This document shows, in pieces, positions 886 to 64,000 of a stretch of 64,000 nucleotides of DNA (positions are counted from its first letter, which is position 1; every line of letters starts with the position of its first letter). The translations under genes and the position numbers were made by a program. The DNA is taken from NCBI GenBank assembly GCA_036261915.1, contig DATAJX010000001.1:83875-147874 (forward strand), given 5' to 3'. The notes below the pieces were generated by a model that searched no databases, had not been told where the DNA came from, and saw nothing but the letters and a program-made list of their open reading frames with translations. The DNA comes from Alphaproteobacteria bacterium (lineage in GTDB: Bacteria; Pseudomonadota; Alphaproteobacteria; UBA2136; UBA6156).

Positions 886-2793
886 TACTTTCGCAGCCAG
901 CTTTTCAGCCTCTTCCAGCCACTTGCCGGCGCTGCCCAGCAAGCCGTTTTCCCAGAACGCCGGGTCGGTCGGGTCAAGCCCGAAAGGTGCCAGCAACGCC
1001 ACGCCATCCTTGGTGCCGCCGGCGCGCAGCAGGTCCAGGTACAGCGGCTCGAATTTCGCCCCCACGCGCTCGCGGCTGCTCATCAAGCTCTGGGTGAACA
1101 GTTCGCCGAAGGCATAGGCGTAAACATAAAAGGGGCTGTGGAAGTGCCCGATGTAACTCCACAGGTTGTTGGTGTTCTCATAGGTGAACACGTTGCCGCT
1201 CACGCCATAAAGCTTCTGCGTGGTGGCGGCCCATACCGCTTCAATATCTTCAACGCCCAGCTTGCCGTCGCGGCGCTTGGCATGCAGTTCCTGCTCAAAC
1301 AGGCTGAAGCCGATCTGCCGCACCACGGTGTTCATAAAGTCGTTCAGCTTTTCCACCAGCAGCACCAAACGCTCCTTGTCGGTGCGGGTCGAGGCGAGCA
1401 AATGTTCAAACGTCAGCATCTCGCCAAACACACTGGCGGTCTCGGCGTACACCATCGGCGCATGCCACATCAGCGGCCCTTGCGCCTGTGCGGCCAGCAA
1501 CCCGTGCACCGCGTGGCCCAGCTCGTGCGCCAGCGTCGCCACGTCGCGCGGCGTGCCCATAAAGTTCAGCAGCATGTAGCTCTTGTCGCCGTCGGGCAGC
1601 ACCGCGGTGGCGTCGTAGGCACCGCCCACCTTGCCGCTGGCGGGCGGGGCATCCACCCAGCCGCTGTCCAGCACGGTGTCCACCAGCTTGCCCAGCGTGG
1701 GGGAAAAACTGGTGTAAGCGCCGCGCACCACGTCGCAGGCCTCGGCCCAGCTCATCTTGCTTTTGCTGGAAAAGGGCAGGGGTGCCTGCCGGTCGCTCCA
1801 TTTCAAATTCTTCTGCTTCAGCAGCTGCGCCTTCAACCGGTAAAAACGCTGGCACAAGGCGGCACCGGTGCCCATCGCGGCATCGTGCAGCGCTTTCACC
1901 GTGGCGTCGTCCACCTGGTTGCCCAGGTTGCGCGCGCTCATGGCGTGGGGGTAGTTGCGGGCGGTATCGTCAACAGCCTTGTCGCCCATCATTACGTTCA
2001 ATGCGCGGGCCTGGAAGTACGGCAGCTTCTGCGCCGCCAGGCCGTCGTTCACAACCTGTAACACCTTGGCGCGCACTTTCGCGTCGTGGCTTTCCTCCAG
2101 CACGTGCAGCATTTCCGGCAGGCCTTTCTTGCTTCCGGCCCATGCAAATTCCAGCTTCGATTCGATCTCGTCCATCATGTCATCCCACTCGCTGGGGCCG
2201 AAGGGGTCGCGCAGGGTCAGCGCCTCCTCAACCTCCTCGCTCAGGTAGTGCTTGGCCAGCGCGCGGGTGTGTTCCAGCATCGGCTTGTGGTGGGCCACGG
2301 CGTTGTCCTCGCGGCACAGGCGCTTAAAAATGCCTTCATCAAGCTTTGCCACTTCCAGGTCAAAGAACGTGAAGTGCTTGGCATGCGCGGCGGCCAACGC
2401 TTCGCTCACGCGGCTTTGTGTCTTGCGTAATGCCGTGTTGCCGGTATCGCGGCTGGCCGAAAGGAACATGTAATAACCCAGCTTGTTCTCGCGGCGGGTC
2501 AGGTCGGCCAGCGTGGTCAGCGCGGCACCCAGTCTGGTGTTCAACTGGCCGCGGTAGGTCTTGTCGAAGTCCGCCATGCTTGCCAGCAGCGCGGCAAGGT
2601 CGCGCTCGATCGCCGGATCGGTGGGGCTGCTGTAAAAAGTGGTCAGGTCCCAGCGCACGTTCTCGGCGCCGGTTTTGGTCGTGGCCATCTTTTTCGCAGG
2701 CGCCTTCTTCACGGCCTTGGGTTTCGGTTTTGCCGAAGCCTTCGCCTTGGTTGCTTTTTTGGGTGCAGGTTTTTGGGGTTTCGCTTTAGCCAT
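880..2793 (-). CDS. pepF: Oligoendopeptidase F (M3B family zinc metallopeptidase)
   Basis: HELGH zinc motif (HELGHAVH), M3 family-like overall; start chosen at internal ATG 2793 (ORF extends to 2937); Lys/Ala/Pro-rich N-terminal tail. Confidence 0.8.
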   Translation of the reverse strand: MAKAKPQKPAPKKATKAKASAKPKPKAVKKAPAKKMATTKTGAENVRWDLTTFYSSPTDPAIERDLAALLASMADFDKTYRGQLNTRLGAALTTLADLTRRENKLGYYMFLSASRDTGNTALRKTQSRVSEALAAAHAKHFTFFDLEVAKLDEGIFKRLCREDNAVAHHKPMLEHTRALAKHYLSEEVEEALTLRDPFGPSEWDDMMDEIESKLEFAWAGSKKGLPEMLHVLEESHDAKVRAKVLQVVNDGLAAQKLPYFQARALNVMMGDKAVDDTARNYPHAMSARNLGNQVDDATVKALHDAAMGTGAALCQRFYRLKAQLLKQKNLKWSDRQAPLPFSSKSKMSWAEACDVVRGAYTSFSPTLGKLVDTVLDSGWVDAPPASGKVGGAYDATAVLPDGDKSYMLLNFMGTPRDVATLAHELGHAVHGLLAAQAQGPLMWHAPMVYAETASVFGEMLTFEHLLASTRTDKERLVLLVEKLNDFMNTVVRQIGFSLFEQELHAKRRDGKLGVEDIEAVWAATTQKLYGVSGNVFTYENTNNLWSYIGHFHSPFYVYAYAFGELFTQSLMSSRERVGAKFEPLYLDLLRAGGTKDGVALLAPFGLDPTDPAFWENGLLGSAGKWLEEAEKLAAKVK

Positions 2794-3014
2794 GGGCCCG
2801 AACCTACCCGCACCGACATCCAACCGCAAGTACGGCATCATCCGCGTACCTAAAAGGGCCATAAATAAACAGCCGCGCACCAAAAGTGTACAGCCAACCG
2901 ACAGCGGCGCATCACTTCCGCACGCTTTTTCCGTCAAACGGCCGCCCTATATATTGTATGTAAGCGCGGCACGCCGGGTTGACCAAACCGCCCCCAAACG
3001 CTACCCATGACGCC

Positions 3015-3674
3015 ATGCATATCAACGACACGCTCATCCGGGAATTCGACGAAGCCATGAAGCAGGAACGCCTGCTCGAGGTCTGGCATAAATTCCGCTG
3101 GTATATTATCGGCTTGGTCACCTTCATCGTGTTGGCCGTGGCGGGGTGGCAGGGTTGGCAGGCATGGCAACTGCACCAGGCCCGCAGCATGGCCGAACGT
3201 TACTACGCCTGGACCAAACTGCCCGAAAAGGAGCAGCAGGCCAAACTGCCCGAACTCCTGCAACGCAGCACCCAAGGCTACCGCGCCCTCATCGTCTTCA
3301 AACAGGCGCAAGAGCAAGGCAAAACCGACGCTGTGGCCGCCGACCGCACCTATGCGCTGGTGTACGGCGACCGTGGCCAGCCCCAGTGGCTGCGCGAAAT
3401 GGCCCGCCTGAACGCGGCCATCATCCTGCTGGGCCGTAACGATACCCTGGCGCAGGAGCACCTCTCGGTACTCGCCCAGCAACCCGAAGAAGCCAAGGCA
3501 GGCCCTGCTTATCCGGCCGCGCTCGAGCTGCTGGCCATGTTGGCCATCCGCCAGGGCGATACCACCACCGCCAACGGTTACCTCAACCGCATGGTGGCAT
3601 TGCCCAACCTGCCGGCCGATAGCCGCGCCCGCGCCCGTTTGTGGCTGGGTGCGTACTCCACGTTGGCCAAATAA
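3015..3674 (+). CDS. YfgM-like membrane-anchored TPR-like protein (ancillary SecYEG/chaperone family, DUF2659-like)
   Basis: N-terminal MHINDTLIREFDEAMKQERLLEVWHKFRWYIIGLVTFIVLAVAGW resembles E. coli YfgM N-terminus (acidic start, single TM), TPR-like C-terminal region. Confidence 0.55.
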   Translation: MHINDTLIREFDEAMKQERLLEVWHKFRWYIIGLVTFIVLAVAGWQGWQAWQLHQARSMAERYYAWTKLPEKEQQAKLPELLQRSTQGYRALIVFKQAQEQGKTDAVAADRTYALVYGDRGQPQWLREMARLNAAIILLGRNDTLAQEHLSVLAQQPEEAKAGPAYPAALELLAMLAIRQGDTTTANGYLNRMVALPNLPADSRARARLWLGAYSTLAK

Positions 3675-3790
3675 CCTCACATTTCTGCCGTCCGGGGGTT
3701 GTGCTTTGGCATTGGCGCCCCATCTGGAGAACAGAGATTGACGCGGAGGGCCGTGGCCCTTACGCTGGACTGAATAAAAGGAGCTTTGTG

Positions 3791-3997
3791 ATGGCCGGTT
3801 TGTTTGCCCAAGTGCGTTTGCCCGTTGAACTGAAAATGAAGCCCACCAACGGCTTGATCGAAATCCAGCCCCTCGAGGTCAGCCCGTCTGAAGACGCGTT
3901 TTTCGGTGGCTACGCCGAAGACATGCTGGCCGACCTTGGCGCCGACCTGGTGGTCGATGCCCCCAAGGCGCGTATCAGCCGTAAAATACAAGGTTAA
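3791..3997 (+). CDS. Small hypothetical protein (68 aa)
   Basis: ATG 3791 preceded by AAAGGAG 8 nt upstream; stop 4 nt before the TTG start of the downstream ybjQ-like gene. Confidence 0.4.
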   Translation: MAGLFAQVRLPVELKMKPTNGLIEIQPLEVSPSEDAFFGGYAEDMLADLGADLVVDAPKARISRKIQG

Positions 3998-4001
3998 TCA
4001 A

Positions 4002-4331
4002 TTGCTTATCACCACCACGCCCTTTGTCGAGGGCTACCGCATCCGCAAATACGGCCCGCTTGTGGCGGCCGAGGCGGTGATGGGGACGAACATCTTCCGC
4101 GATTTTTTCGCCAAGGTACGAGATGTAGTGGGTGGCCGCAGCAGCGCCTTTCAGGCCGCCCTGGCAAACGCCCGCGAGCTGACTTTACGGGAAGTAACCG
4201 AGCAGGCGGAGCGGGCGGGTTGTAATGCTATCATAGGGTTAGATATAGATTATGGCGAGATCTCGGGCGGCGGGATGACCATGCTGATGGTGGCTGTTCA
4301 GGGCAGTGCCGTATTTATTGAGCCTGCATAA
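4002..4331 (+). CDS. ybjQ: YbjQ/UPF0145 family protein (heavy-metal-binding-like domain)
   Basis: LITTTPFVEGYRI...GTNIFRDFFAKVRDVVGGRS...IIGLDIDYGEISGGGMTMLMV matches the UPF0145 signature; TTG start at 4002 chosen by alignment with the family N-terminus (MxxxTTP). Confidence 0.7.
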   Translation: MLITTTPFVEGYRIRKYGPLVAAEAVMGTNIFRDFFAKVRDVVGGRSSAFQAALANARELTLREVTEQAERAGCNAIIGLDIDYGEISGGGMTMLMVAVQGSAVFIEPA

Positions 4332-7460: not shown

Positions 7461-8093
7461 ATGGCTGCCCAACAGACAAACATGGAAGAAATTCTAACCT
7501 CCATCCGCACCACGCTGGCGGAGGAAACGGCTAAGGCGGGCACCCCCGCGGCTACGGCTGTGGCTGAAGAGATGTCGGATGAAGAAGTGCTTGCGCTCTC
7601 GGAAGCCGATGTGATGCCCGCTGCCAATGCCGAAGAAACGGTGGACCTTGCCGCGTTTGGACAGGAAGGTGAAGTGAAGATGCAACCCGCCGCGAACGTG
7701 AGCGCCAATGCCGATGTATTGGGTGAGGGGCCTGAAACTCCAGTTGCAGCAACAGCTGCCCCGGCTGCTCCTGTTGAAGCCGCCGCTGCCCCGGCCGCTA
7801 CACCTGCGCCCGCCAAGCAGGCTGATGACCTGGATAAGCTGATTGCGGAGATCGCTTCGGAGCCCGCACCTGCTGCTGCCCCGACAGTGCCTGCTGCATC
7901 TGCCGGTGTTGCGAATGCCCCGGTTTCGTTGGGTTTGGTGGGCGACGTGGCCGATCTGCAAGTGGCTTTGCCGGCCGAAGTTTTGGCCGCTGCCCTGCGC
8001 CCGCTGGTGCAAACCTGGCTGGAACAGAACCTTGCCGGGGTGGTTGAGCGCCTTGTGCAGGCTGAAATCAGCAAGCTTTCCAACGCCGAGTAA
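7461..8093 (+). CDS. popZ: PopZ-like polar organizing protein (DUF2497)
   Basis: N-terminal MEEILTSIRTTL and C-terminal LRPLVQTWLEQNLAGVVERLVQAEISKL match the PopZ conserved N/C termini flanking a low-complexity A/P/E-rich linker. Confidence 0.7.
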   Translation: MAAQQTNMEEILTSIRTTLAEETAKAGTPAATAVAEEMSDEEVLALSEADVMPAANAEETVDLAAFGQEGEVKMQPAANVSANADVLGEGPETPVAATAAPAAPVEAAAAPAATPAPAKQADDLDKLIAEIASEPAPAAAPTVPAASAGVANAPVSLGLVGDVADLQVALPAEVLAAALRPLVQTWLEQNLAGVVERLVQAEISKLSNAE

Positions 8094-26368: not shown

Positions 26369-27181
26369 ATGCCGCATCCCATGGGCGGGTGCTGGGCAAA
26401 GCTCGAAAGGGCAAAATCCACGGTGGCCGAACTGGAAAAAAGCATCACCGATTACCTGAAGCCCGGCTCGCCCCACTTCACCATCACCTCCGGGCATTTC
26501 AATCAGTTCACCGAATTCGGCTACACCGTAGCGGGCAAACCTTTGCCGCTGTCGTTCGCGGTCATGGCGGGCGAGGTCCTGCACCACCTGCGCTCCGCGC
26601 TCGACTACGCGCTATGGGCGTTGGCCAGTCAAAAGATCGAACCCGGGCGCGACCTTCAATTTCCTTTATGCGACAATCCCTCCGATTTTCAGGAAAAGCT
26701 CCGCCGTAAAAGCTTCAAAGGCATCAGCGAGCAGGGCAGGGCGCTTATCGAACAACTGCAACCCTACAACAGCCAGCCCGATCCCCACCTCTCCACCTTC
26801 AAGGCCCTGTCCGAATATAACAACATCGACAAACACCGCCTGCTCCTGGTCGTCTCCGCCGCGGCGCAAATCGGCAATACCATCAAACTGGGTGATGACG
26901 GCAAGGCCACGGGTCCCACCGTGATTAAGGGTTTCGGCCCGCCCGACGAAGTCATGGTCACCGAAGAAGGTACCCGCGTGTTCACCATTTATTTCGACGG
27001 CCCCCATCCGCACGCCAACGCCCAAATGGAGATAAAGCTGAAGGCCTATTTCGCCCCCGTTCCCCACATCCTGCCCAAGGTCGAATTCATCTCCGGGCTG
27101 CAATTGCTGTGCGCCAACGTCGAAGATGCGCTCAAACGCCTTCAAGCTCTGTTCGATAGGGAATTCCCTCCCATGGGCTAA
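26369..27181 (+). CDS. Hypothetical protein (270 aa), unknown function
   Basis: ATG 8 nt after glmM stop; no recognisable motif; followed by a strong terminator. Confidence 0.5.
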   Translation: MPHPMGGCWAKLERAKSTVAELEKSITDYLKPGSPHFTITSGHFNQFTEFGYTVAGKPLPLSFAVMAGEVLHHLRSALDYALWALASQKIEPGRDLQFPLCDNPSDFQEKLRRKSFKGISEQGRALIEQLQPYNSQPDPHLSTFKALSEYNNIDKHRLLLVVSAAAQIGNTIKLGDDGKATGPTVIKGFGPPDEVMVTEEGTRVFTIYFDGPHPHANAQMEIKLKAYFAPVPHILPKVEFISGLQLLCANVEDALKRLQALFDREFPPMG

Positions 27182-27202
27182 CTGCCCATCCAAAAAACAA
27201 AA

Positions 27203-27230
27203 GGCCCGCCATTCCGGCGGGCCTTTTTTG
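27203..27230 (+). terminator. Rho-independent terminator after 26369..27181
   Basis: GGCCCGCC-attcc-GGCGGGCC hairpin followed by TTTTTT. Confidence 0.75.
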
Positions 27231-27295
27231 TCAGCAACCTTACGCCGCCGGTCAGCTCCATTCCGCAAATGTAAGCTTGCTTACACGTGCAAATA

Positions 27296-27425
27296 TGAAA
27301 AAGCGGCTTTGAGGCCGCCCCGACATTCCCGCATCACCCGCGCATCATTCACGCTCGTTTAAAGGCCAAATCGCATCACAAGTGTACAGCTCAACATCAC
27401 TCGCGCATCACCTGCGCAGCATTAT
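27296..27425. repeat. Dispersed repeat family B copy 1 (cgcatcac-rich element)
   Basis: ~105-bp segment CCGACATTCCCGCATCACCCGCGCATCAT...TGTACAGC...CGCGCATCAC similar to 45442..45556. Confidence 0.5.
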
Positions 27426-27760
27426 TGCCCTTCTTGAGGCGTCTTGGCGATGAACGACATTTCCGTAAGCCGCGTCACCGGGTTGTAGCCATTCAGCTTC
27501 ACGAAAGCATACGGGTGGCGGCGCGCGCAGCTCTCCACGTGCGCCATCAGTTGCCCGGCGGTCAGCGCCTGCGGCTGGCCCTCGGCGCCAAAGCGCGTCG
27601 GCAATATCGGCCACTGCCGCCAGTAAAAATCGGCATGGGTCGGGGTCTCGCTGAATTCGATGCTGGCCACCCAACCGTTGGCAATGAGCGTATGCGCCTG
27701 CGCCTCAATTTGCGCATTGCTCAGTGGTGGCAAAAAAGCAAAAGTTTCAAATCTTTGCAT
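27422..27760 (-). CDS. RuBisCO small-subunit (RbcS/CbbS)-like protein
   Basis: MQRFETFAFLPPLSNAQIEAQAHTLIANGWVASIEFSE....FYWRQW.......VKLNGYNPVTRLTEMSFI aligns along its length with form I RbcS (cf. RFETFSYLPPLSD.QIAAQIEYMI..G..P.IEF......FYW.MWKLP); ATG 27760 7 nt after the NUDIX stop. Confidence 0.8.
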   Translation of the reverse strand: MQRFETFAFLPPLSNAQIEAQAHTLIANGWVASIEFSETPTHADFYWRQWPILPTRFGAEGQPQALTAGQLMAHVESCARRHPYAFVKLNGYNPVTRLTEMSFIAKTPQEGQ

Positions 27761-27767
27761 CACGTCC

Positions 27768-28166
27768 TCAATCTATCCTGTTAATTTGTTTCAGCCAGTC
27801 GAAGATCAACACGGCGGCCCCGCCCACGCGCGGTCGGTCGGCATGGCCAAGCCACGCCATGTCGTCTATCTCGCTCGCGGGTTTCAGCACGCCGGTGTAA
27901 TCGCCGCCGTAGCAGGCAATGCGCACCAGCGTGCCTTCAGGCTTGCCGTGGGCCTGCGCTTCAAAGGTGTCCAGGTACTCCAGGTTCTCCGGCGCCAGTT
28001 GCACGTTCAGTTCTTCACCGATTTCGCGCACCAGCGCCTGCTGGTCGGTTTCACCGGCCTCGCGCTTGCCGCCCGGAATATAGTAAACCTGCTGGCCGCG
28101 GCTGCGCACCATCAGCACGCGGCGGTTCTCCACCCGCAGCCAGCCCAGCTTATCAATGCTCGCCAT
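27768..28166 (-). CDS. NUDIX hydrolase
   Basis: NUDIX box GGKREAGETDQQALVREIGEELNV (Gx5Ex7REUxEE); start ATG overlaps the stop of the upstream RbcL-like gene (TAATG). Confidence 0.8.
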   Translation of the reverse strand: MASIDKLGWLRVENRRVLMVRSRGQQVYYIPGGKREAGETDQQALVREIGEELNVQLAPENLEYLDTFEAQAHGKPEGTLVRIACYGGDYTGVLKPASEIDDMAWLGHADRPRVGGAAVLIFDWLKQINRID

Positions 28167-29905
28167 TACGCGTCGTCCTCGGGTTCGTCATCGTCCTTGC
28201 GCGGCGCAAACGGCTTGATGTTATCCGGCTTGGGGGCAGGGAAGGTCTGCACCTCGCCACCGGTGGCCTTGCCCACGCCGGGGTTGGTGCCGGTCCCGCC
28301 AATCACACCGAACAGGAACGCACCCTCGTGCCAGTGGTCCAGCGCGGCCTTCAGCTCGGGGCAATAGCGCGCGGCCTTGCTCAAAATGGTGCGGCCTTCC
28401 ACGGCCAGGCTCACACCCTCGTTACGGGCCTGAACCAGCGCTTCAATGGCGGTACGGTTGGCAATGGCACCGGCCTGGCTGCCCCAGGGGTGTCCCATGA
28501 TGCTGCCGCCACATTGAATGACCACATGGTCGCCCATCGCATCGATCAGGCGGGGGAAGTGCCACGGGTTGTGCCCGCCGCCCACGGCCGGAATGGCCGG
28601 GTTCAACCCATGGAAAGGCTGGCTCACATAGTGCCCGGTGTCGGGCGCAGCCTGCACCAGGTCGTCGCGCAACGCGGCCATCACGCCGCTCACCTGGCGG
28701 CGGTTGGTCACGCTGCCGCGCAGCGGGCTGGCGGTGCTCACCATGTCGCAACCGGCCCAGCGCAACAGCTTGGCATGCAACTGTTCGCTCATCATGTCGC
28801 CGCTCAGGGCGCGGCCGCCCATGGCGCACAGCACCATCTCGTTCTTGCGGCACCACTCGGTCAGGCTGTGCAATGCGGCCCAGCCAATCGCCACGCTGTC
28901 CACCATCACCATGGCCATTTCCATGTCCTTGGCCCACAGCGCGCGCTCCAGCATCAGGTCAACAGTGGGTGCGGTAATATTGCAGGCATGGCTTTTAAAC
29001 TCATTGGTCTCGCGCATGGCGGCATGGGCGGCTTCTGCGGCGTACCTGAAGCGCTCGCGCCAGCCGTTGGTGGGTATGCTGTGCAGCAAAACCGGGTCGG
29101 CGCAAAAATCGGCCCCGCCCACCAGGGCCTCGTACACCGCGCGGCCATATTGACGGGCACTCAACCCCTGCATGGGGCGGATGGTACAGCTCATCAGCGG
29201 GCGCCCGTGCTTGTTCATGGCATCGCGCAAGCCGCGCACGCCAAAGGCCGGGCCGCGGAAGGTCCGGGCCAGCAGTTCCGGCAATCTAATATCCATCAGC
29301 CGCGCGCCGGTGCCGGTCAGCGCCGCGCTCACCACGCTCAGCACGCCGGGCACGCTGCCGCCTTCAATCAACAGGTGGGGCACCAGCAGGTGCAGCCGTA
29401 TCCGGCGCGGGCCCACGGTCTCGGCATGGGTCACGGCGGGCTGCGGCTGGGTCGGGTCGGCATATTCCTGCGTCCAGCTGTCCACCCATACGCCTTGCAT
29501 GGCGCTGCTTATCAGCTTGCTGGCGCTGGCGGGGGTGTGGTCCGTATCGGCCAGTTCCAGCACGGCGGTTAAAGCGGTCTCCGGGCTCAGCACGGCCGAA
29601 GCCCCGCCACCCACCACCGGCACATTATCCGCCTGCGGCGCCACCAAACTGTCCAGCGGCACCCCCAGCGCCCGGGCGATCTTCACCACGCTGCCAAAAC
29701 CGGGGTTGGTATGCCCGCTCAATATCCGGCTCAGGCTGGCCATGCTCACGCCACTGGCCCGCGCCAGCTCGGCCGAGCTCATGCCCTTGCCCGCCAACAA
29801 TTCCTTAATAACGTCGCCCAAGTTTTCCGAATGTATCATGTTGCGTTTATGGAATACCCCTTGCAAATACGCAACCAAAAAACCGCCTTTTCCGGCAAGT
29901 CTCAT
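28166..29905 (-). CDS. HTH(XRE)-RuBisCO large-subunit-like fusion protein (non-canonical active site)
   Basis: Residues ~25-85 are an XRE-type HTH (LGDVIKELLAGKGMSSAELARASGVSMASLSRILSGHTNP). The rest aligns with the RbcL N- and C-domains (FRGPAFGVRGLRDAMNKHGRPLMSCTIRPMQGLSARQYGRAVYEALVGG; GGGHNPWHFPRLIDAMGDHVVIQCGGSIMGHPWGSQAGAIANRTAIEALVQARNEG). The catalytic K175/K177/K201/D203/E204/H294/H327/K334 equivalents are replaced. Real start may be the internal ATG ~29839 (MIHSENLGD...). Confidence 0.8.
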   Translation of the reverse strand: MRLAGKGGFLVAYLQGVFHKRNMIHSENLGDVIKELLAGKGMSSAELARASGVSMASLSRILSGHTNPGFGSVVKIARALGVPLDSLVAPQADNVPVVGGGASAVLSPETALTAVLELADTDHTPASASKLISSAMQGVWVDSWTQEYADPTQPQPAVTHAETVGPRRIRLHLLVPHLLIEGGSVPGVLSVVSAALTGTGARLMDIRLPELLARTFRGPAFGVRGLRDAMNKHGRPLMSCTIRPMQGLSARQYGRAVYEALVGGADFCADPVLLHSIPTNGWRERFRYAAEAAHAAMRETNEFKSHACNITAPTVDLMLERALWAKDMEMAMVMVDSVAIGWAALHSLTEWCRKNEMVLCAMGGRALSGDMMSEQLHAKLLRWAGCDMVSTASPLRGSVTNRRQVSGVMAALRDDLVQAAPDTGHYVSQPFHGLNPAIPAVGGGHNPWHFPRLIDAMGDHVVIQCGGSIMGHPWGSQAGAIANRTAIEALVQARNEGVSLAVEGRTILSKAARYCPELKAALDHWHEGAFLFGVIGGTGTNPGVGKATGGEVQTFPAPKPDNIKPFAPRKDDDEPEDDA

Positions 29906-30017
29906 GTAAGCAACCTAAAAAAACTGTGTGTTTATGGCCAAAAAAGCCCAAAAACCCATTGTCCTGCAAGCAAGGCTTTGGCATGTATGCACCGTTAATA
30001 ACCTAAGGAGTACATAC
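29906..30017. promoter_or_regulatory. Divergent intergenic control region between HTH-RbcL-like operon and OMP gene
   Basis: 112-bp AT-richer spacer between divergently transcribed genes; expected location of both promoters and of any operator bound by the XRE HTH. Confidence 0.4.
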
Positions 30018-30626
30018 ATGAAGCAAGTAGCAATTTTAACCGTTGTGGCAGCAGGCCTTATCGCAAGCAACGCCATGGCAACCGACGGCGCCTACATGGG
30101 CGTGCAGGGCGGTTATAGCTCGATCAAGGCCAAGCAAGAAGGCAACCTGAACGGCGCCGGCCTCAGCGATACCAACAACGCCGACGGCGCACAGCTGGGT
30201 GTGTACGGTGGTTACGGTAAAACCTTCAACAATGTTTATCTGGGCGCCGAAGTCGAAGCCAACGGCACCAACAACAGCATGGATCCCAACTACAGCGGCA
30301 ACGCCACCAAGTTCAAGCAGGAGTACAACTACGGCGCCGCAGCGCGTGTGGGCTATAACTACAACGATTGCCTGATGCCCTACGTTCGCGCCGGTGTTAC
30401 CCGTGCCAAGTTCAACCAGGTGGGCGGCAACCTCGACGACAGCCAAACCAAAACCGGCTTCGCCCCGGGCGTGGGTCTCGAATACCACGTGGCCGACCAC
30501 ATGAGCGTACGCGGCGAACTGGTCAGCACCTACTACGGCCGCATGGACAGCTCCAACAGCACCTCGGGCGTCAGCAGCAAGCTGAACGACCGCGTGGCCC
30601 GCGTCGGTCTCACCTACAACTTCTAA
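30018..30626 (+). CDS. Outer-membrane beta-barrel protein (OmpA-like/OmpW-type small barrel)
   Basis: AAGGAG RBS 7 nt upstream; signal peptide MKQVAILTVVAAGLIASNAMA; alternating amphipathic strands rich in Y/G/N; C-terminal ...GLTYNF. Confidence 0.7.
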   Translation: MKQVAILTVVAAGLIASNAMATDGAYMGVQGGYSSIKAKQEGNLNGAGLSDTNNADGAQLGVYGGYGKTFNNVYLGAEVEANGTNNSMDPNYSGNATKFKQEYNYGAAARVGYNYNDCLMPYVRAGVTRAKFNQVGGNLDDSQTKTGFAPGVGLEYHVADHMSVRGELVSTYYGRMDSSNSTSGVSSKLNDRVARVGLTYNF

Positions 30627-30684: not shown

Positions 30685-30761
30685 TGGTGGCGCCTCACGG
30701 ATTCGAACCGCGGACACGAGGATTATGATTCCTCTGCTCTAACCAACTGAGCTAAGGCGCC
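30685..30761 (-). tRNA. tRNA with CAT anticodon (elongator Met or Ile2/lysidine type)
   Basis: Reverse complement GGCGCCTTAGCTCAGTTGGTTAGAGCAGAGGAATCATAATCCTCGTGTCCGCGGTTCGAATCCGTGAGGCGCCACCA folds as cloverleaf; anticodon loop ATCATAA; G1-C72 pair so not initiator. Confidence 0.85.
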
Positions 30762-44609: not shown

Positions 44610-45212
44610 TTAAAGGCTTTGCGGCGGCAACAGCAAACCGGCGTGTTTTACCAGCAAGGCGTCCACGGCTTCCATATCCGCAACAACCCCCAACGCGGCA
44701 AGGCTGGTCACGGGTTTGTCCAGCCCGCAGGGCCTTATCCGGGCATACGCGCCCAAATCAGGCGCCACGTTCAGCGCCACGCCGTGGTACGCCACCCATT
44801 TCCTCACCCGCACGCCAATGGCGGCGATCTTGGCTTCACCCACCCAAACCCCCACATCGTCGGTGATCTCGCCCTTCACCCCCAAATCGGCCAAAACCGC
44901 CACCATCCACATCTGCAAGCGCTTAATGTAGGCCCGTATATCTCGGTCCTCCAGCCTCACAACCAGGTAAACCACCCGCTGCCCCGGCCCGTGGTAAGTA
45001 GTCTTGCCGCCGCGCCCGGTGGTAAGCACCGGAATATCCCCCGGGTTCAAAACCTCACCCGCTTCGGCGCTGCTCCCGGCGGTAAAAACCGGCGCGTGCT
45101 CGCAAAAAATCACCTTTTCCGGCCCACCGGCCAGCACATCGGCCAAGGTTTCCTCCATGCGCAGAACACCCTGTTCGTAAGGGGTCAGCCCGGGCCACGT
45201 TTCAAATTGCAT
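44610..45212 (-). CDS. lipB: Octanoyltransferase LipB
   Basis: LipB-like (TYHGPGQRVVYLVVRL, KIAAIGVRVRKWVAYHGVALNV); start set to ATG 45212 because the longer ORF would overlap the tRNA-Leu. Confidence 0.85.
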   Translation of the reverse strand: MQFETWPGLTPYEQGVLRMEETLADVLAGGPEKVIFCEHAPVFTAGSSAEAGEVLNPGDIPVLTTGRGGKTTYHGPGQRVVYLVVRLEDRDIRAYIKRLQMWMVAVLADLGVKGEITDDVGVWVGEAKIAAIGVRVRKWVAYHGVALNVAPDLGAYARIRPCGLDKPVTSLAALGVVADMEAVDALLVKHAGLLLPPQSL

Positions 45213-60858: not shown

Positions 60859-62994
60859 AATCGAAAGCAACACCGGCTGCCCGGTTTTCACGCTCTCGGC
60901 CGCCGCCAGAATCACATGACTGCTATGCAACAGCTCGGCCACCGGCACAGGCACGGGCGCGCGGCCGCGGCAGGCATCGGCAAACGCCTGCAACGCAGCG
61001 GCATGGCCCTTGTCGGCGCTGCCGAAAAACCCCCGGCACTTCAGTGTGCGGCCGTTCCAGAGCGTAGTCTTGTAATTGGTCATCACGCCGCTGTTGCCGC
61101 CGCCGCTCACGCTCACCATTTCCTTCGGCGCCTGCGGGTGGTTCTCCGACGTGTATAAAATCACGCTCAAACTGCCGTCGCGGTGGCGCAAGGTTATGCT
61201 GTAGCAATCCTGCCCCTTCCCCGCCGTGGCGGTCACGCTCTGCACCGGGCTGCCGGCAAGGTAAAGCGCAAGGTCGGTAAAGTGGCAGGCTTCGCCCAGC
61301 AAACGGCCGCCGCCTTCGGCCCCGCTCTGCCAGTTGGCGTCGTCCAGCTTGCCCGCGTTCACGCGTATCATGATCTGTTTCGGCCCGCGCACTTCGGCCA
61401 GCTTGTCGCGCAGCGGCTGCAGGTAGGGCGAAAAGCGCCGGTTGAACCCCACCATCAACACCTGCGGGTGTGCCCGGTGCGTGGCCTCGATCTTTTCCAG
61501 GTCCTTGGCGGTCAGGCTCAACGGCTTTTCCACCCACACGTGCTTGCCTGCCTTCAGCGCACTCACCACCTGCGCGGCATGCGCGCTGTGGCGGGTCGAA
61601 ATCACCACCGCATGGGTGTTGGCATCCTCCAGCAGCGCGTTCTCGCCGGTCGCGGCAAACGTGGCCTCGAATTTCTCCATCGCATGCGCGGCGGTCAACC
61701 CGCCCTTGCCTGCGATCCCGGCCAGCGCCACGCCATCGGTCTTCTTCAGCAACGGCAGCAACGTACCGCGTGCAAACGCACCCGGGCCCAGCAGGCTCAC
61801 GCCCAGCTCATCACGGCGCAACGCCACGCTGGTATAAGGCTGCTCGGCCTGCAACTCGGGGTAAGCCAGCACCACGCCCAGCGTGTCGCCACCCTTGGCG
61901 ATCATCTCATAAGCCTTCAACGCGTCACCGAATTCAAACATGTGGCTGGTCAGCAAACCCACATCCAGCGTGCCCGCCGCCATCAGTTCTAAAACTTCGC
62001 GCAGGTGGTCGGCTTCGGTGTGCGGCACATACCCGGCCGGGTAGGCCACGCCCTGCTGCTCAAACGCCGGGTCGTAGCGCCCTGGCCCGTAGCTGCGGCT
62101 GGTCTTTACCGTCAGTTCCTTCTTCATGAAATCCGCGTAAGGGAAGGCCGTCCCCACCTTGCCCACCAGCACCACCGTGGCGCGGTCGCGGGCCCAGGCC
62201 GCAGCCTGGGCAATCGGCCCGTCGCTGTCGGTCGCGGCACAGATCAAAACCGAATCAAACCCCCGCCCGCCGGTAAACTCGGCAAAAGCGGCATCAGCTG
62301 CGGCGGCACCGCTCGCGGCCAGAATCGCCCCACCCTGCACAGCCAGGTCCCCACGCTGCCTGTTCGGGTCAAACCCGGCCACCTGGGCCCCGGCGGCGGC
62401 GGCAATCTGCACCGCCAACTGCCCTACAAGACCCAAGCCCATCACCAGCACGCGGTCGCCCAACGCCACACCGGCATTGCGCACGCCCTGCAACGCAATG
62501 GCCGCCAGCGTGGCATAACACGCATGTTCAAACAGAACACCCTCCGGCATCTTCGCCGTCAAATTCTTCGGCACGGCATTCACCTGCGCATGGTTGGCCA
62601 AACCGGCACCGGCCATGGCCACGCTGTCGCCCACGGCGTACAGGTGCGCCACGCTGGCACCCACCGCCATCACGGTGCCCGCGGCGCTGTAACCCAGCGG
62701 CAAAGGTTCGTCCAAACGGCCGAACACGCTCTGCAGCGTCGCCGCCAGCCCGTCGCGCTTCAGCTTGCCCATGGTCTTGGCCACCAGGTCGGGGCGGCTT
62801 TTGGCCTTACCCACTAAACTCTTGCTGGCAAATTCCATCACCATGCGCTCGGTCCCGGCTGAAATCAGGCTGGCCTTGGTGGCCACCAAAACTTCGCCCG
62901 TCCCCACGCTGGGCAGCGGCACGGTTTTCATCTCAATTTTGCCTTTGCGCACGTTCTGGGTGATCTGCTTCATCTTGTTCTTCCGTTTAAGCAA
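60856..62994 (-). CDS. Bifunctional oxidoreductase: zinc-binding MDR alcohol-dehydrogenase-like N-domain fused to Gfo/Idh/MocA C-domain
   Basis: N-terminal MDR fold (GTERMVMEF... Rossmann GLGLVGQLAVQ), C-terminal Gfo/Idh/MocA region (HAVVISTRHSAHAAQVVSALKAGKHVWVEKPLS, EACHFTDL); polysaccharide-biosynthesis-type fusion. Confidence 0.7.
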   Translation of the reverse strand: MLKRKNKMKQITQNVRKGKIEMKTVPLPSVGTGEVLVATKASLISAGTERMVMEFASKSLVGKAKSRPDLVAKTMGKLKRDGLAATLQSVFGRLDEPLPLGYSAAGTVMAVGASVAHLYAVGDSVAMAGAGLANHAQVNAVPKNLTAKMPEGVLFEHACYATLAAIALQGVRNAGVALGDRVLVMGLGLVGQLAVQIAAAAGAQVAGFDPNRQRGDLAVQGGAILAASGAAAADAAFAEFTGGRGFDSVLICAATDSDGPIAQAAAWARDRATVVLVGKVGTAFPYADFMKKELTVKTSRSYGPGRYDPAFEQQGVAYPAGYVPHTEADHLREVLELMAAGTLDVGLLTSHMFEFGDALKAYEMIAKGGDTLGVVLAYPELQAEQPYTSVALRRDELGVSLLGPGAFARGTLLPLLKKTDGVALAGIAGKGGLTAAHAMEKFEATFAATGENALLEDANTHAVVISTRHSAHAAQVVSALKAGKHVWVEKPLSLTAKDLEKIEATHRAHPQVLMVGFNRRFSPYLQPLRDKLAEVRGPKQIMIRVNAGKLDDANWQSGAEGGGRLLGEACHFTDLALYLAGSPVQSVTATAGKGQDCYSITLRHRDGSLSVILYTSENHPQAPKEMVSVSGGGNSGVMTNYKTTLWNGRTLKCRGFFGSADKGHAAALQAFADACRGRAPVPVPVAELLHSSHVILAAAESVKTGQPVLLSI

Positions 62995-64000
62995 TTTTAT
63001 GGGTCACATCGTTGCGGTTCTGGAATATCCCGCAAGGGTCCACCACCATCTTCCCGGCCAGCGCTCCATCGGGCAATGCCTTAAAGGCACTGTGCGCGGT
63101 CAAACTCACCACCACCTTGGCGGCGGCCACGGCGGTGGAAAGCGGCACAATGGCGTAATCGTTATGTTTACGAATATGCGGCTCCACGATCAGGCAATGA
63201 AACCCCGGGCGCTTCTTCAGTTCCTCGATCACGGTGATGGCGGGGCTCTCGCGCAAGTCATCCACATCCGGCTTATAGGCCAAGCCCAAACAGGCAATAC
63301 TGCACGGGGTGCCCCCGGCGGCGGCCACGGCCTTCTCGATCTGCTCCACCACCCACAGCGGCTTGTCGTCGTTGGTGGCGCGGGTGGCCTGCATCTGCGG
63401 CGTCAGCTCGGGCGCCTCGGCAATAATGAACCACGGGTCCACCGCAATGCAGTGCCCGCCAACGCCGGTGCCGGGGGTCAGAATATTCACGCGCGGATGA
63501 TGGTTGGCCAGTTTAATGACATTCCACACATCCAAACCCATCTTGGCGCACACGGTACTCAGCTCGTTCGCAAACGCGATCTGCGCATCGCGGCTGGCGT
63601 TCTCCACCAGCTTCACCATCTCAGCCTCGGCGGCGGTGCAGGGCAGCAACTGGCCGGTGCAAAAGCTCTGGTACAACGCCAAACCGCGCCCGGTGGCCTG
63701 CGGCGTCAATCCACCCACCAGCCGGTCGTTCTCCACCATTTCGCGTACGGTGGCGCCGGGTATCGCGCGCTCTGGGCAAAACACGTAATCGATCTTGTCA
63801 GCCAGTTCCGGGCGCAAGCGCTCAACCACATCCTTCACATGCTTGCGGGTGGCGCCCACGGGGCTGGTGCTTTCCAAAACCACCAGGTCGCCGGCCTTCA
63901 GCACCGGCGTCATGCTGGTAACCCCGGCTTCCACAAAACTCATGTCCGGGGTGTGCAGTGCGTGGTCCACCGGGGTGGGCAGGCTCAAAATGAACACGTC
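62987..64000 (-). CDS. UDP-sugar 6-dehydrogenase (WecC/WbpA/TviB family), 5' partial
   Basis: Central and C-terminal UDPG/MGDP dehydrogenase domains (catalytic-Cys region, GLAYKPDVDDLRESPA); N-terminal Rossmann part lies beyond the window end. Confidence 0.7.
   Translation of the reverse strand, partial: DVFILSLPTPVDHALHTPDMSFVEAGVTSMTPVLKAGDLVVLESTSPVGATRKHVKDVVERLRPELADKIDYVFCPERAIPGATVREMVENDRLVGGLTPQATGRGLALYQSFCTGQLLPCTAAEAEMVKLVENASRDAQIAFANELSTVCAKMGLDVWNVIKLANHHPRVNILTPGTGVGGHCIAVDPWFIIAEAPELTPQMQATRATNDDKPLWVVEQIEKAVAAAGGTPCSIACLGLAYKPDVDDLRESPAITVIEELKKRPGFHCLIVEPHIRKHNDYAIVPLSTAVAAAKVVVSLTAHSAFKALPDGALAGKMVVDPCGIFQNRNDVTHKIA

Follow-up and report, generated by a model that had tools for sequence, protein, structure and literature searches.

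RuBisCO-like proteins (RLPs) of form IV are enzymes that generally keep the carbamate lysine and the metal ligands of RuBisCO, the carboxylase/oxygenase of ribulose-1,5-bisphosphate, lack a small subunit and branch off outside forms I-III. To our knowledge, all the known non-carboxylating relatives of RuBisCO are enzymes without small subunits. CbbR, the regulator of the cbb operons, is a LysR-type protein that responds to sugar phosphates such as ribulose-1,5-bisphosphate. In certain one-component regulators, such as MocR/GabR (GntR-type helix-turn-helix [HTH] plus aminotransferase fold), NrtR (Nudix fold plus winged HTH) and the XRE-cupin proteins, a DNA-binding domain is joined to a sensor domain of (pseudo)enzyme fold, the former active site being the ligand pocket; we know of no member of these families that combines a RuBisCO large subunit with a small-subunit partner. 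The locus described here lies in a stretch of 64,000 nucleotides (hereafter, the window, to which all coordinates refer) from an uncultured Alphaproteobacteria bacterium (assembly GCA_036261915.1, contig DATAJX010000001.1, positions 83,875 to 147,874 of the forward strand). It consists of three minus-strand genes that encode, in this order, an HTH domain fused to a RuBisCO large-subunit-like (RbcL-like) core, a NUDIX hydrolase and a small-subunit-like (RbcS-like) protein. The fusion and its RbcS-like partner look like an undescribed RuBisCO-derived gene regulator. In particular, sequence and predicted structure lead us to favour, with moderate confidence, a transcription factor that regulates its own operon and has a dead form I RuBisCO as scaffold, together with a small-subunit partner, the NUDIX gene being a passenger in the three-gene operon. 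The elements of the pair are the following (pLDDT, predicted local distance difference test):

28166..29839, minus strand: HTH-RbcL fusion gene, 557 aa from ATG 29839, with stop codon TAA at 28166-28168
29642..29821, minus strand: XRE/Cro-C1-type HTH domain, aa 7-66 of 557 (HTH_3 PF01381, 2.5e-13)
28334..29575, minus strand: RbcL-like core, aa 89-502, made up of the N-domain and the TIM barrel (profile, PDB and Foldseek matches)
28169..28333, minus strand: disordered Pro/acidic C-terminal tail, aa 503-557 (pLDDT <50 over 511-557; family alignment)
27422..27760, minus strand: RbcS-like small-subunit gene, 112 aa from ATG 27760, with an alternative GTG at 27763 (Pfam RuBisCO_small, 3.4e-19)

The fusion belongs to a family of 76 clusters of HTH plus RbcL fusions (40-86% identity), all of them from uncultured Proteobacteria, mostly labelled Alphaproteobacteria. 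Its longest open reading frame (ORF) in the window spans 28166..29905 (579 aa; Pfam HTH_3 at aa 33-86, 2.5e-13, and RuBisCO_large PF00016 at aa 223-525, 6.9e-62). The translation start, in any case, is very probably ATG 29839 (M23 of that ORF) and not 29905, because (i) an identical NCBI protein (P0001) has 557 aa; (ii) the homologues begin there or later; and (iii) two palindromes, described below, lie within the 66 nt upstream. The 22 extra codons up to 29905 are probably not translated.

An AlphaFold2 model built from an alignment of 73 family members (pLDDT 88.3) comprises the HTH, a linker, a full N-domain plus TIM barrel, and a disordered C-tail. The HTH domain, whose HTH_3 match exceeds the gathering score, is modelled as five helices with pLDDT >90 and has weak PDB matches to HigA, SinR and C.BclI. 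The linker (aa 67-88) is disordered (pLDDT about 42) and poorly conserved (mean top-residue frequency, 0.30). When compared with form I RbcL by means of Foldseek, the core gives a template modelling (TM) score of about 0.9 and a root mean square deviation of 2-2.5 A, at an identity of 33-36%. The C-tail is not found in canonical RbcL; it has an acidic end and a short semi-conserved ..(I/V)(T/K)PF.. motif, whose extended form, ..TPF(K/R)(K/R)P.., looks like a short linear motif.

Form I RuBisCO resembles this locus in that the large-subunit fold is complete, with an ancestral form I RbcL as best sequence match, and in that a cognate RbcS-like gene lies directly downstream, in the L-then-S order. 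The best PDB match of the fusion is 7qsw_A, a reconstructed ancestral form I large subunit (301 bits, 1.3e-88), and green-type RuBisCO structures outscore the red-type ones. Among the NCBIfam models, form I scores highest (319 bits; cutoff, 438), followed by form III (197), MtnW (110), form II (82) and OiaX (57), and all the RuBisCO and RLP models score the fusion below their cutoffs. Among 1.84 billion representatives clustered at 50% identity, the RuBisCO superfamily yielded 1391 matches, and at this level the fusion family collapses to about five clusters. In a crude neighbour-joining (NJ) tree, built on 50%-identity representatives and with forms I-prime, I-alpha and I'' unlabelled, the fusion family is monophyletic (100/100 bootstraps) and sister to green plus red form I (73/100), never inside that crown; this sister position may be a long-branch effect. 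Profile scores, PDB matches and tree all put the fusion nearest to form I, so that the analogy with archaeal form III RuBisCO, drawn in an earlier note on this DNA, is weak.

The differences from form I RuBisCO are the following. In the family (i) the catalytic, carbamate and Mg residues are all replaced; (ii) the first roughly 45 RbcL residues have been swapped for the HTH and linker, and an extra disordered C-tail is present; and (iii) no genes of the Calvin-Benson-Bassham (CBB) cycle are seen near the locus, and the proteins form a separate clade outside the green/red crown. A census of 25 classical RuBisCO active-site positions over 73 family members gave the following replacements:

Lys201 (carbamate): A, C or V in 73/73, with no Lys in any member
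Asp203 (Mg ligand): P in 72/73
Glu204 (Mg ligand): T, S, V or A in 73/73
Lys175: R in 73/73
Lys177: M, L or I in 72/73, and S in one
His294: M family-wide
His327: S in 73/73
Lys334: G family-wide
Glu60 (N-domain): Q, N or S
Asn123 (N-domain): A

The window fusion itself carries A247, P249 and V250 at the positions of Lys201, Asp203 and Glu204. Because the catalytic, carbamate and Mg residues are replaced family-wide, carboxylation or any carbamate/Mg-dependent enolisation is excluded for the fusion, as far as its residues tell. It is true that the automatic annotations name carboxylase large and small chains and that the gene order, L then S, is the one expected of a variant cbb operon with a working RuBisCO; nevertheless, with Lys201, Asp203, Glu204, Lys175, His294, His327 and Lys334 all gone, a form I score of 319 bits against a cutoff of 438, and no cbb genes nearby, such an operon is hardly credible. 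Calvin-cycle genes (prk, cbbX/Q/O, carboxysome) were not seen within +/-10 kb or in the related loci. The earlier note had held that the arrangement is not a known cbb operon, and this holds good, since the large-subunit homologue, with its catalytic residues replaced, cannot be a carboxylase.

As regards the form IV RLPs (MtnW/YkrW, the enolase acting on 2,3-diketo-5-methylthiopentyl-1-phosphate, and OiaX), the likeness is that they too are RuBisCO_large homologues without the carboxylase residues. The HTH-RbcL family, by contrast, has lost the metal centre, is accompanied by a small subunit, carries an HTH and stands closest to form I. Judged from its residues and gene order, the family is neither a functional form I RuBisCO nor, owing to the form I placement, the small subunit and the loss of the metal centre, a form IV RLP.

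Part of the old pocket has nonetheless been kept. The family has retained Thr173, Asp198, Asp202, Arg295, Trp66 and two glycine loops (Gly380-381 and Gly403-404), and 16 of the 25 ex-active-site positions are conserved at >=90%, as compared with 118 of 389 positions in the remaining core (Fisher p=8e-4). The higher conservation of these positions speaks for a specific role that the remodelled pocket continues to play. The RbcL-like domain may sense a small molecule, for the pocket is strongly conserved and both R295 and the glycine motifs of phosphate binding are in place; such a role does not depend on the NUDIX hydrolase. The presence of R295, of the change from K175 to R and of the Gly-Gly phosphate-binding loops makes a phosphorylated effector plausible.

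The same conservation could be expected if the fusion were a bifunctional enzyme-repressor like PutA, BirA or NadR, whose remodelled barrel catalyses a new reaction while the HTH autoregulates. In favour of such a protein, the pocket is significantly more conserved than the remaining core, and the RuBisCO superfamily has repeatedly evolved new enzymes (the form IV RLPs; NCBIfam has models for MtnW and OiaX). However, the metal/carbamate centre, which is the basis of every known RuBisCO or RLP reaction, is gone in 73/73 members, plus K175, H294, H327 and K334; no metabolic genes are consistently adjacent, the context being housekeeping; and the NCBIfam enzyme models all stay far below their cutoffs. 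A new enzyme is, in consequence, an unlikely explanation, though one with a real share of the probability.

The RbcS-like protein is the second member of the unit. Its ORF (27422..27763) has 113 aa when counted from the GTG, and its best PDB matches are green-type and ancestral RbcS (about 1e-16). The set of loci used for comparison came from a one-genome-per-species scan, which gave 24 fusion-relative loci, and from metagenomic homologue look-ups, which added more. By tblastn and profile search, an RbcS-like gene was found downstream of the fusion in 25 of the 28 informative loci, usually 2-50 nt away. These RbcS-like proteins form a separate family of 37 clusters, confined to contigs that bear the fusion. 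By gene order, then, what is conserved is the pair of fusion and RbcS-like gene. Apart from this, the C-terminus of the RbcS-like proteins (27422-27445 in the window) is nearly invariant, ..(A/V)(K/R)TPQEGQ, the window version being ..AKTPQEGQ, and it resembles a short linear motif.

A 14-bp palindrome, TTSCAT-N2-ATGSAA, recurs just upstream of the fusion genes, often twice, with the copies 17-21 bp apart. In the window, two such sites can be distinguished:

29841..29854, no strand assigned: operator-like palindrome 1, TTGCGTTTATGGAA on the plus strand and TTCCATAAACGCAA on the gene strand, 19.4 bits
29861..29874, no strand assigned: operator-like palindrome 2, TTGCAAATACGCAA on the plus strand, 17.4 bits

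Palindrome 1 ends 1 nt ahead of the start codon ATG 29839, and the two sites lie 20 bp apart, centre to centre. When scored with a position weight matrix (PWM) from which the window and its nearest relative had been left out, they are the best and second-best 14-mers in the whole 64-kb window. The two-site layout, with a spacing of 17-21 bp, is also present in L003, L005, L016/L022 and L035. For counting, a deliberately loose pattern was used (TTSC-N6-GSAA): of its 34 matches in 259 kb of loci, 19 fall within 120 nt upstream of fusion starts, in 14 of 23 loci. The upstream regions counted add up to 2.8 kb, i.e., about 1% of the DNA, which makes the motif about 100-fold enriched there; besides, the six inner positions, left unconstrained by the pattern, favour CAT-AT-ATG. 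Among the hold-out loci fetched later, L033 and L035 gave strict matches, and L032 and L030 relaxed ones. The layout is that expected of an autoregulated XRE-type repressor whose putative operators overlap the promoter/start region. Since the palindrome half-site resembles a -35 element and no obvious Shine-Dalgarno sequence is found for the fusion, its mRNA may be leaderless.

Other PWM hits in the window were tried as regulon sites and rejected: that at 44670-44683 falls inside a lipB-like coding sequence, and those at 62981-62994 and 63012-63025 lie at the coding junction of two minus-strand genes. The two genes at the latter junction, of the sugar-nucleotide type, are an ORF resembling UDP-sugar dehydrogenase and an oxidoreductase-like ORF of 712 aa. 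A weak pair at 27261-27274 and 27287-27300 lies between the two hairpins found 3' of the RbcS-like gene. None of these hits is convincingly intergenic or upstream of a gene, and they were treated as chance, although the weak pair could matter if the complex loops DNA. Finally, a small hairpin of 5 bp with a T-run and a terminator-like score (29883-29898, minus strand) is found in the part of the long ORF that precedes ATG 29839, farther upstream than the palindromes, and is probably due to chance.

The mechanism that we propose for the autoregulating transcription factor would be as follows. The large-subunit core would still form head-to-tail L2 dimers capped by S, possibly up to L8S8, and the two-fold axis of each L2 dimer would pair two N-terminal HTH domains so that they read one palindrome. 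The tandem sites, two helical turns apart, would be bound cooperatively, and binding over the promoter/start region would autoregulate the operon. The ex-active-site pocket would bind an effector, possibly phosphorylated, that modulates DNA binding. The design is thus the same as that of MocR/GabR, NrtR and the XRE-cupin regulators, palindromic operators at the regulator's own promoter included (predicted ones in our case); the difference is that the module consists here of a RuBisCO large subunit and a separately encoded small-subunit partner. CbbR is likewise a transcription factor tied to RuBisCO biology, but its fold is unrelated, and in the present locus, which has no cbb genes nearby, it is the predicted regulator itself that is built from RuBisCO.

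A more far-reaching version, which we put forward as tentative and rather doubtful, is an L8S8 particle with four outward-facing HTH dimers, that is, a giant multivalent transcription factor or nucleoid organiser which would sit on tandem or looped operators and sense a phosphorylated metabolite through its eight ex-active sites. A different possibility is that the RuBisCO-like core is a ligand-free oligomerisation scaffold, and the protein a constitutive repressor or a nucleoid-organising particle with several HTH dimers. Tandem operators about two helical turns apart would suit a multivalent binder, and the retained RbcS partner fits the architectural role that small subunits are known to play in form I RuBisCO. 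A pure scaffold, nevertheless, would not need 16 of 25 ex-active-site positions conserved at >=90%, and we consider it about as unlikely as the new enzyme.

Several points weigh against the autoregulating, ligand-sensing factor that we favour. Everything said here on DNA binding, on the complex and its stoichiometry, and on a ligand is computational prediction, and a new enzymatic activity would likewise give a strongly conserved pocket. The operator motif was first spotted by eye in the same upstream regions in which it was later counted, a circularity that the hold-out and leave-out checks lessen but do not remove. Only degenerate versions of the motif are present in 9 of the 23 loci, and the PWM scan of the 64-kb window gave no further convincing operator, so a regulon beyond self-regulation is not seen there. 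Furthermore, neither the HTH nor the RbcS-like partner is absolutely obligatory, because a divergent subclade (P0077, L021, L023, L030) has no adjacent RbcS-like gene and one member (P0208) has no HTH. With regard to the NUDIX gene as passenger, the copies of the window and of locus L001 are sisters in an NJ tree, but in only 21/100 bootstraps (the tree was computed without P0095, which is the L001 NUDIX itself); the two may come from one old insertion, and there may have been some lineage-specific functional recruitment.

The exceptional members have some further features. In P0208 (487 aa), a Lys-rich N-terminus of 25 aa replaces the HTH, and the dead-site signature is the same (RPM, DPT, GGGHNPWHFPRL). 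The RbcS-less loci L021, L023 and L030/L031 are labelled Magnetococcales or UBA2136. Either P0208 or the divergent subclade may represent an evolutionary intermediate or a secondary loss.

In the window, the spacer between the large- and small-subunit genes is occupied by the NUDIX hydrolase gene:

27768..28166, minus strand: NUDIX hydrolase gene, 132 aa, MutT-like minimal (Pfam NUDIX PF00293, 1.1e-11)
28002..28070, minus strand: Nudix box, aa 33-55, GKREAGETDQQALVREIGEELNV, read from the translation

When its Nudix box (GKREAGE-TDQQALV-REIGEELNV) is compared with the consensus GX5EX7REUXEEXGU, the catalytic REx2EE glutamates are intact and only the penultimate G is changed, to N; the box is intact in the L001 copy as well. 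The protein resembles the minimal, MutT-type Nudix hydrolases in being a single Nudix domain of 132 aa with an intact REx2EE and in having MutT as its closest solved structure (best PDB match, 1.3e-6). It differs from them in that it remains far below any equivalog cutoff (best NCBIfam equivalog, 31 bits, against cutoffs of 98-245) and in lying between RbcL- and RbcS-like genes, which it does in a shallow lineage only.

The earlier note had taken the three genes for one functional module and asked for the trio to be conserved in related genomes, and in this the comparison of loci goes against it: a NUDIX gene stands between the RuBisCO-like genes in only 2 of 28 loci, namely the window and L001, whose fusion is 82% identical to that of the window. 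The closest relative (P0002/L035, 86% identity) has no NUDIX gene, and its RbcS-like gene begins 12 nt after the fusion. A relative with 78% identity (P0003, on a JGI contig) carries a GIY-YIG gene in the slot; L004, a VOC/glyoxalase gene (7645-8010); L007, a 178-aa ORF without assigned function (2174-2710); and L020, a three-ORF cassette that includes a nucleotidyltransferase (1622-4031). In L006, a near-twin of L004, the slot is empty. The L-S spacer therefore looks like a variable slot that collects small genes, its contents differing even between near-identical genomes, such as L004 and L006.

Elsewhere, the NUDIX family is large (more than 1100 homologue clusters at E<=1e-5), is spread over many phyla and consists of stand-alone proteins of about 132 aa. 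Chloroflexi, Micromonospora, Hymenobacter and others have homologues with 55-62% identity; in two Chloroflexi metagenome-assembled genomes (MAGs) and in one unlabelled metagenome contig, such homologues were seen in unrelated contexts. The NUDIX protein of the window is no closer to the L001 copy than to its homologues from Chloroflexi and actinobacteria (60-62%). Because the trio is not kept in relatives and the NUDIX family is large and stand-alone elsewhere, the NUDIX gene is best seen, on these comparisons, as a lineage-specific passenger in a permissive L-S spacer, outside the conserved unit. A MutT-like housecleaning hydrolase would have landed in that spacer in a shallow sub-lineage, where it would be merely co-expressed under the regulator's promoter; any gene landing there would be co-expressed in the same way, and other lineages would have other small genes or none. 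Two candidate features of the insertion were rejected: a signature of horizontal transfer, since the GC content of the NUDIX gene (0.58-0.65) is like that of its neighbours, and an integron-type cassette insertion, since the junctions in the window (1-nt overlap and 7 nt) leave no room for attC-like sites.

These data bear on two other explanations. According to the first, the trio is one module in which the NUDIX enzyme makes or removes a nucleoside-diphosphate-X or ribose-phosphate effector sensed by the RbcL-like domain. The genes are translationally coupled in the window, the Nudix box is intact in both copies, the RbcL-like pocket retains phosphate-binding elements, and a common origin of the two copies would fit the data, if weakly. 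Against this stand the two loci out of 28, the absence of the gene from the closest relative, the slot filled elsewhere with GIY-YIG, VOC, nucleotidyltransferase or unassigned genes, or with nothing, and a huge family that stands alone in unrelated phyla and contexts, with Chloroflexi and actinobacterial homologues no more distant than the L001 copy; such a module is, hence, quite improbable. Being outside the conserved unit, the NUDIX gene should not drive hypotheses on the module's effector.

According to the second, less probable still, the locus would serve in defence or resemble a toxin-antitoxin system, with an XRE regulator next to a slot for changing effectors (NUDIX, GIY-YIG nuclease, nucleotidyltransferase). 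Domain types such as these are common in conflict systems, and PADLOC gives matches for the NUDIX protein (candidate PDC-S07, 2.6e-11) and for the HTH (generic models of defence-associated HTHs). But the slot is empty in most loci and one of the cargoes is a glyoxalase/VOC gene; the place of the pair among housekeeping genes is conserved and suggests vertical inheritance; and the PADLOC matches reflect generic domain similarity, with the RbcL-like and RbcS-like proteins matching no defence model.

Regarding the architecture of the operon, the description in the earlier note agrees with the sequence. The ORF list and a Pfam match for each gene place three minus-strand ORFs within 27422-29905. 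The fusion and NUDIX genes overlap in a TAATG (28164-28168; ...GCG TAA TGG...), so that they share one base, the last of the fusion stop codon and the first of the codon with which the NUDIX gene starts. The NUDIX and RbcS-like genes are separated by 7 nt (27761-27767; TGA-GGACGTG-ATG), assuming that the latter starts at ATG 27760, ahead of which there is a Shine-Dalgarno-like GAGG; with a start at GTG 27763, the spacer is 4 nt. The divergent outer membrane protein (OMP) beta-barrel gene (ORF 29928..30626, with an OMP_b-brl Pfam match and a probable start at ATG about 30018) and the tRNA-Met(CAT) at 30685-30761, 780 bp from 29905, are also where the earlier note had them.

Junctions this tight are ordinary in bacterial operons and not remarkable as such. 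A consensus scan found no terminator-like site at either internal junction and, 3' of the RbcS-like gene, it found the following hairpins:

27300..27321, minus strand: first terminator-like hairpin plus T-run, ~100 nt past the RbcS-like stop codon (consensus scan)
27199..27227, minus strand: strong hairpin with a 13-bp stem and a T-run, with an A-run on the opposite side (consensus scan and sequence)

The scan was based on consensus only, and its hits in the region are not above shuffle expectation. Since the junctions overlap or span 7 nt, terminator-like sites are absent from them and two hairpins are present 3' of the RbcS-like gene, the three genes in all likelihood belong to a single transcription unit, with the hairpin at 27300..27321 as its probable 3' end. 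Of the single functional unit proposed in the earlier note, then, the shared transcript is supported, and the NUDIX as an integral member, with the trio in 2 of 28 loci, does not. The hairpin at 27199..27227, located between the operon and the convergent ORF 26369-27181, is possibly a bidirectional terminator shared with that ORF. At Rfam gathering thresholds, no riboswitch or leader was found near the operon, and only four tRNAs were matched in the 64-kb window.

The neighbourhood of the module is syntenic across many MAGs, with tilS, ftsH and glmM on one side, and proS and lolCDE on the other. This shared housekeeping neighbourhood indicates that the module is vertically inherited and not a mobile island.

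If the proposed regulator is real, it would represent a new fate for the RuBisCO superfamily, from enzyme to regulator: a branch beside form I would have held on to the small subunit, discarded the whole catalytic centre, acquired a DNA-binding domain and evolved together with an operator. Should the more tentative L8S8 particle be correct, a RuBisCO holoenzyme, small subunit included, would have been repurposed for gene regulation in non-autotrophic Proteobacteria, leaving a natural record of what RbcS does for the large-subunit core once catalysis no longer matters. Such proteins would provide a natural system for studying (i) the structural contribution of the small subunit independently of catalysis; and (ii) the conversion of an active site into a sensor pocket. 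No description of the paired HTH-RbcL and RbcS-like architecture was found in the searchable full-text literature, a scope that leaves subscription-only literature outside, and a 2025 survey of the superfamily (bioRxiv 10.1101/2025.11.05.686826) does not mention the HTH-RbcL architecture.

From a practical point of view, genes misannotated as RuBisCO large or small chains can yield false autotrophy calls in metagenome marker surveys, because automatic annotation says carboxylase though the protein cannot carboxylate. The label ribulose-bisphosphate carboxylase large or small chain is attached, for instance, to P0002, P0003, P0024, P0355-P0358 and others.

As to the flanking DNA, ORF 26369-27181 (plus strand, 270 aa) is convergent with the operon and lies between the RbcS-like gene and glmM. 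Neither Pfam nor PADLOC gave a match for it, and it is a singleton cluster, absent from all the related loci. The host lineage is evidently poorly classified, since the labels of the related MAGs conflict while the synteny around the module is shared: Alphaproteobacteria, Pseudomonadales, Pseudomonadaceae, 'Pseudomonas fluorescens' and 'Blastochloris viridis' are all found (L001, L002, L004, L008, L010, L015), and Magnetococcales is also among the labels.

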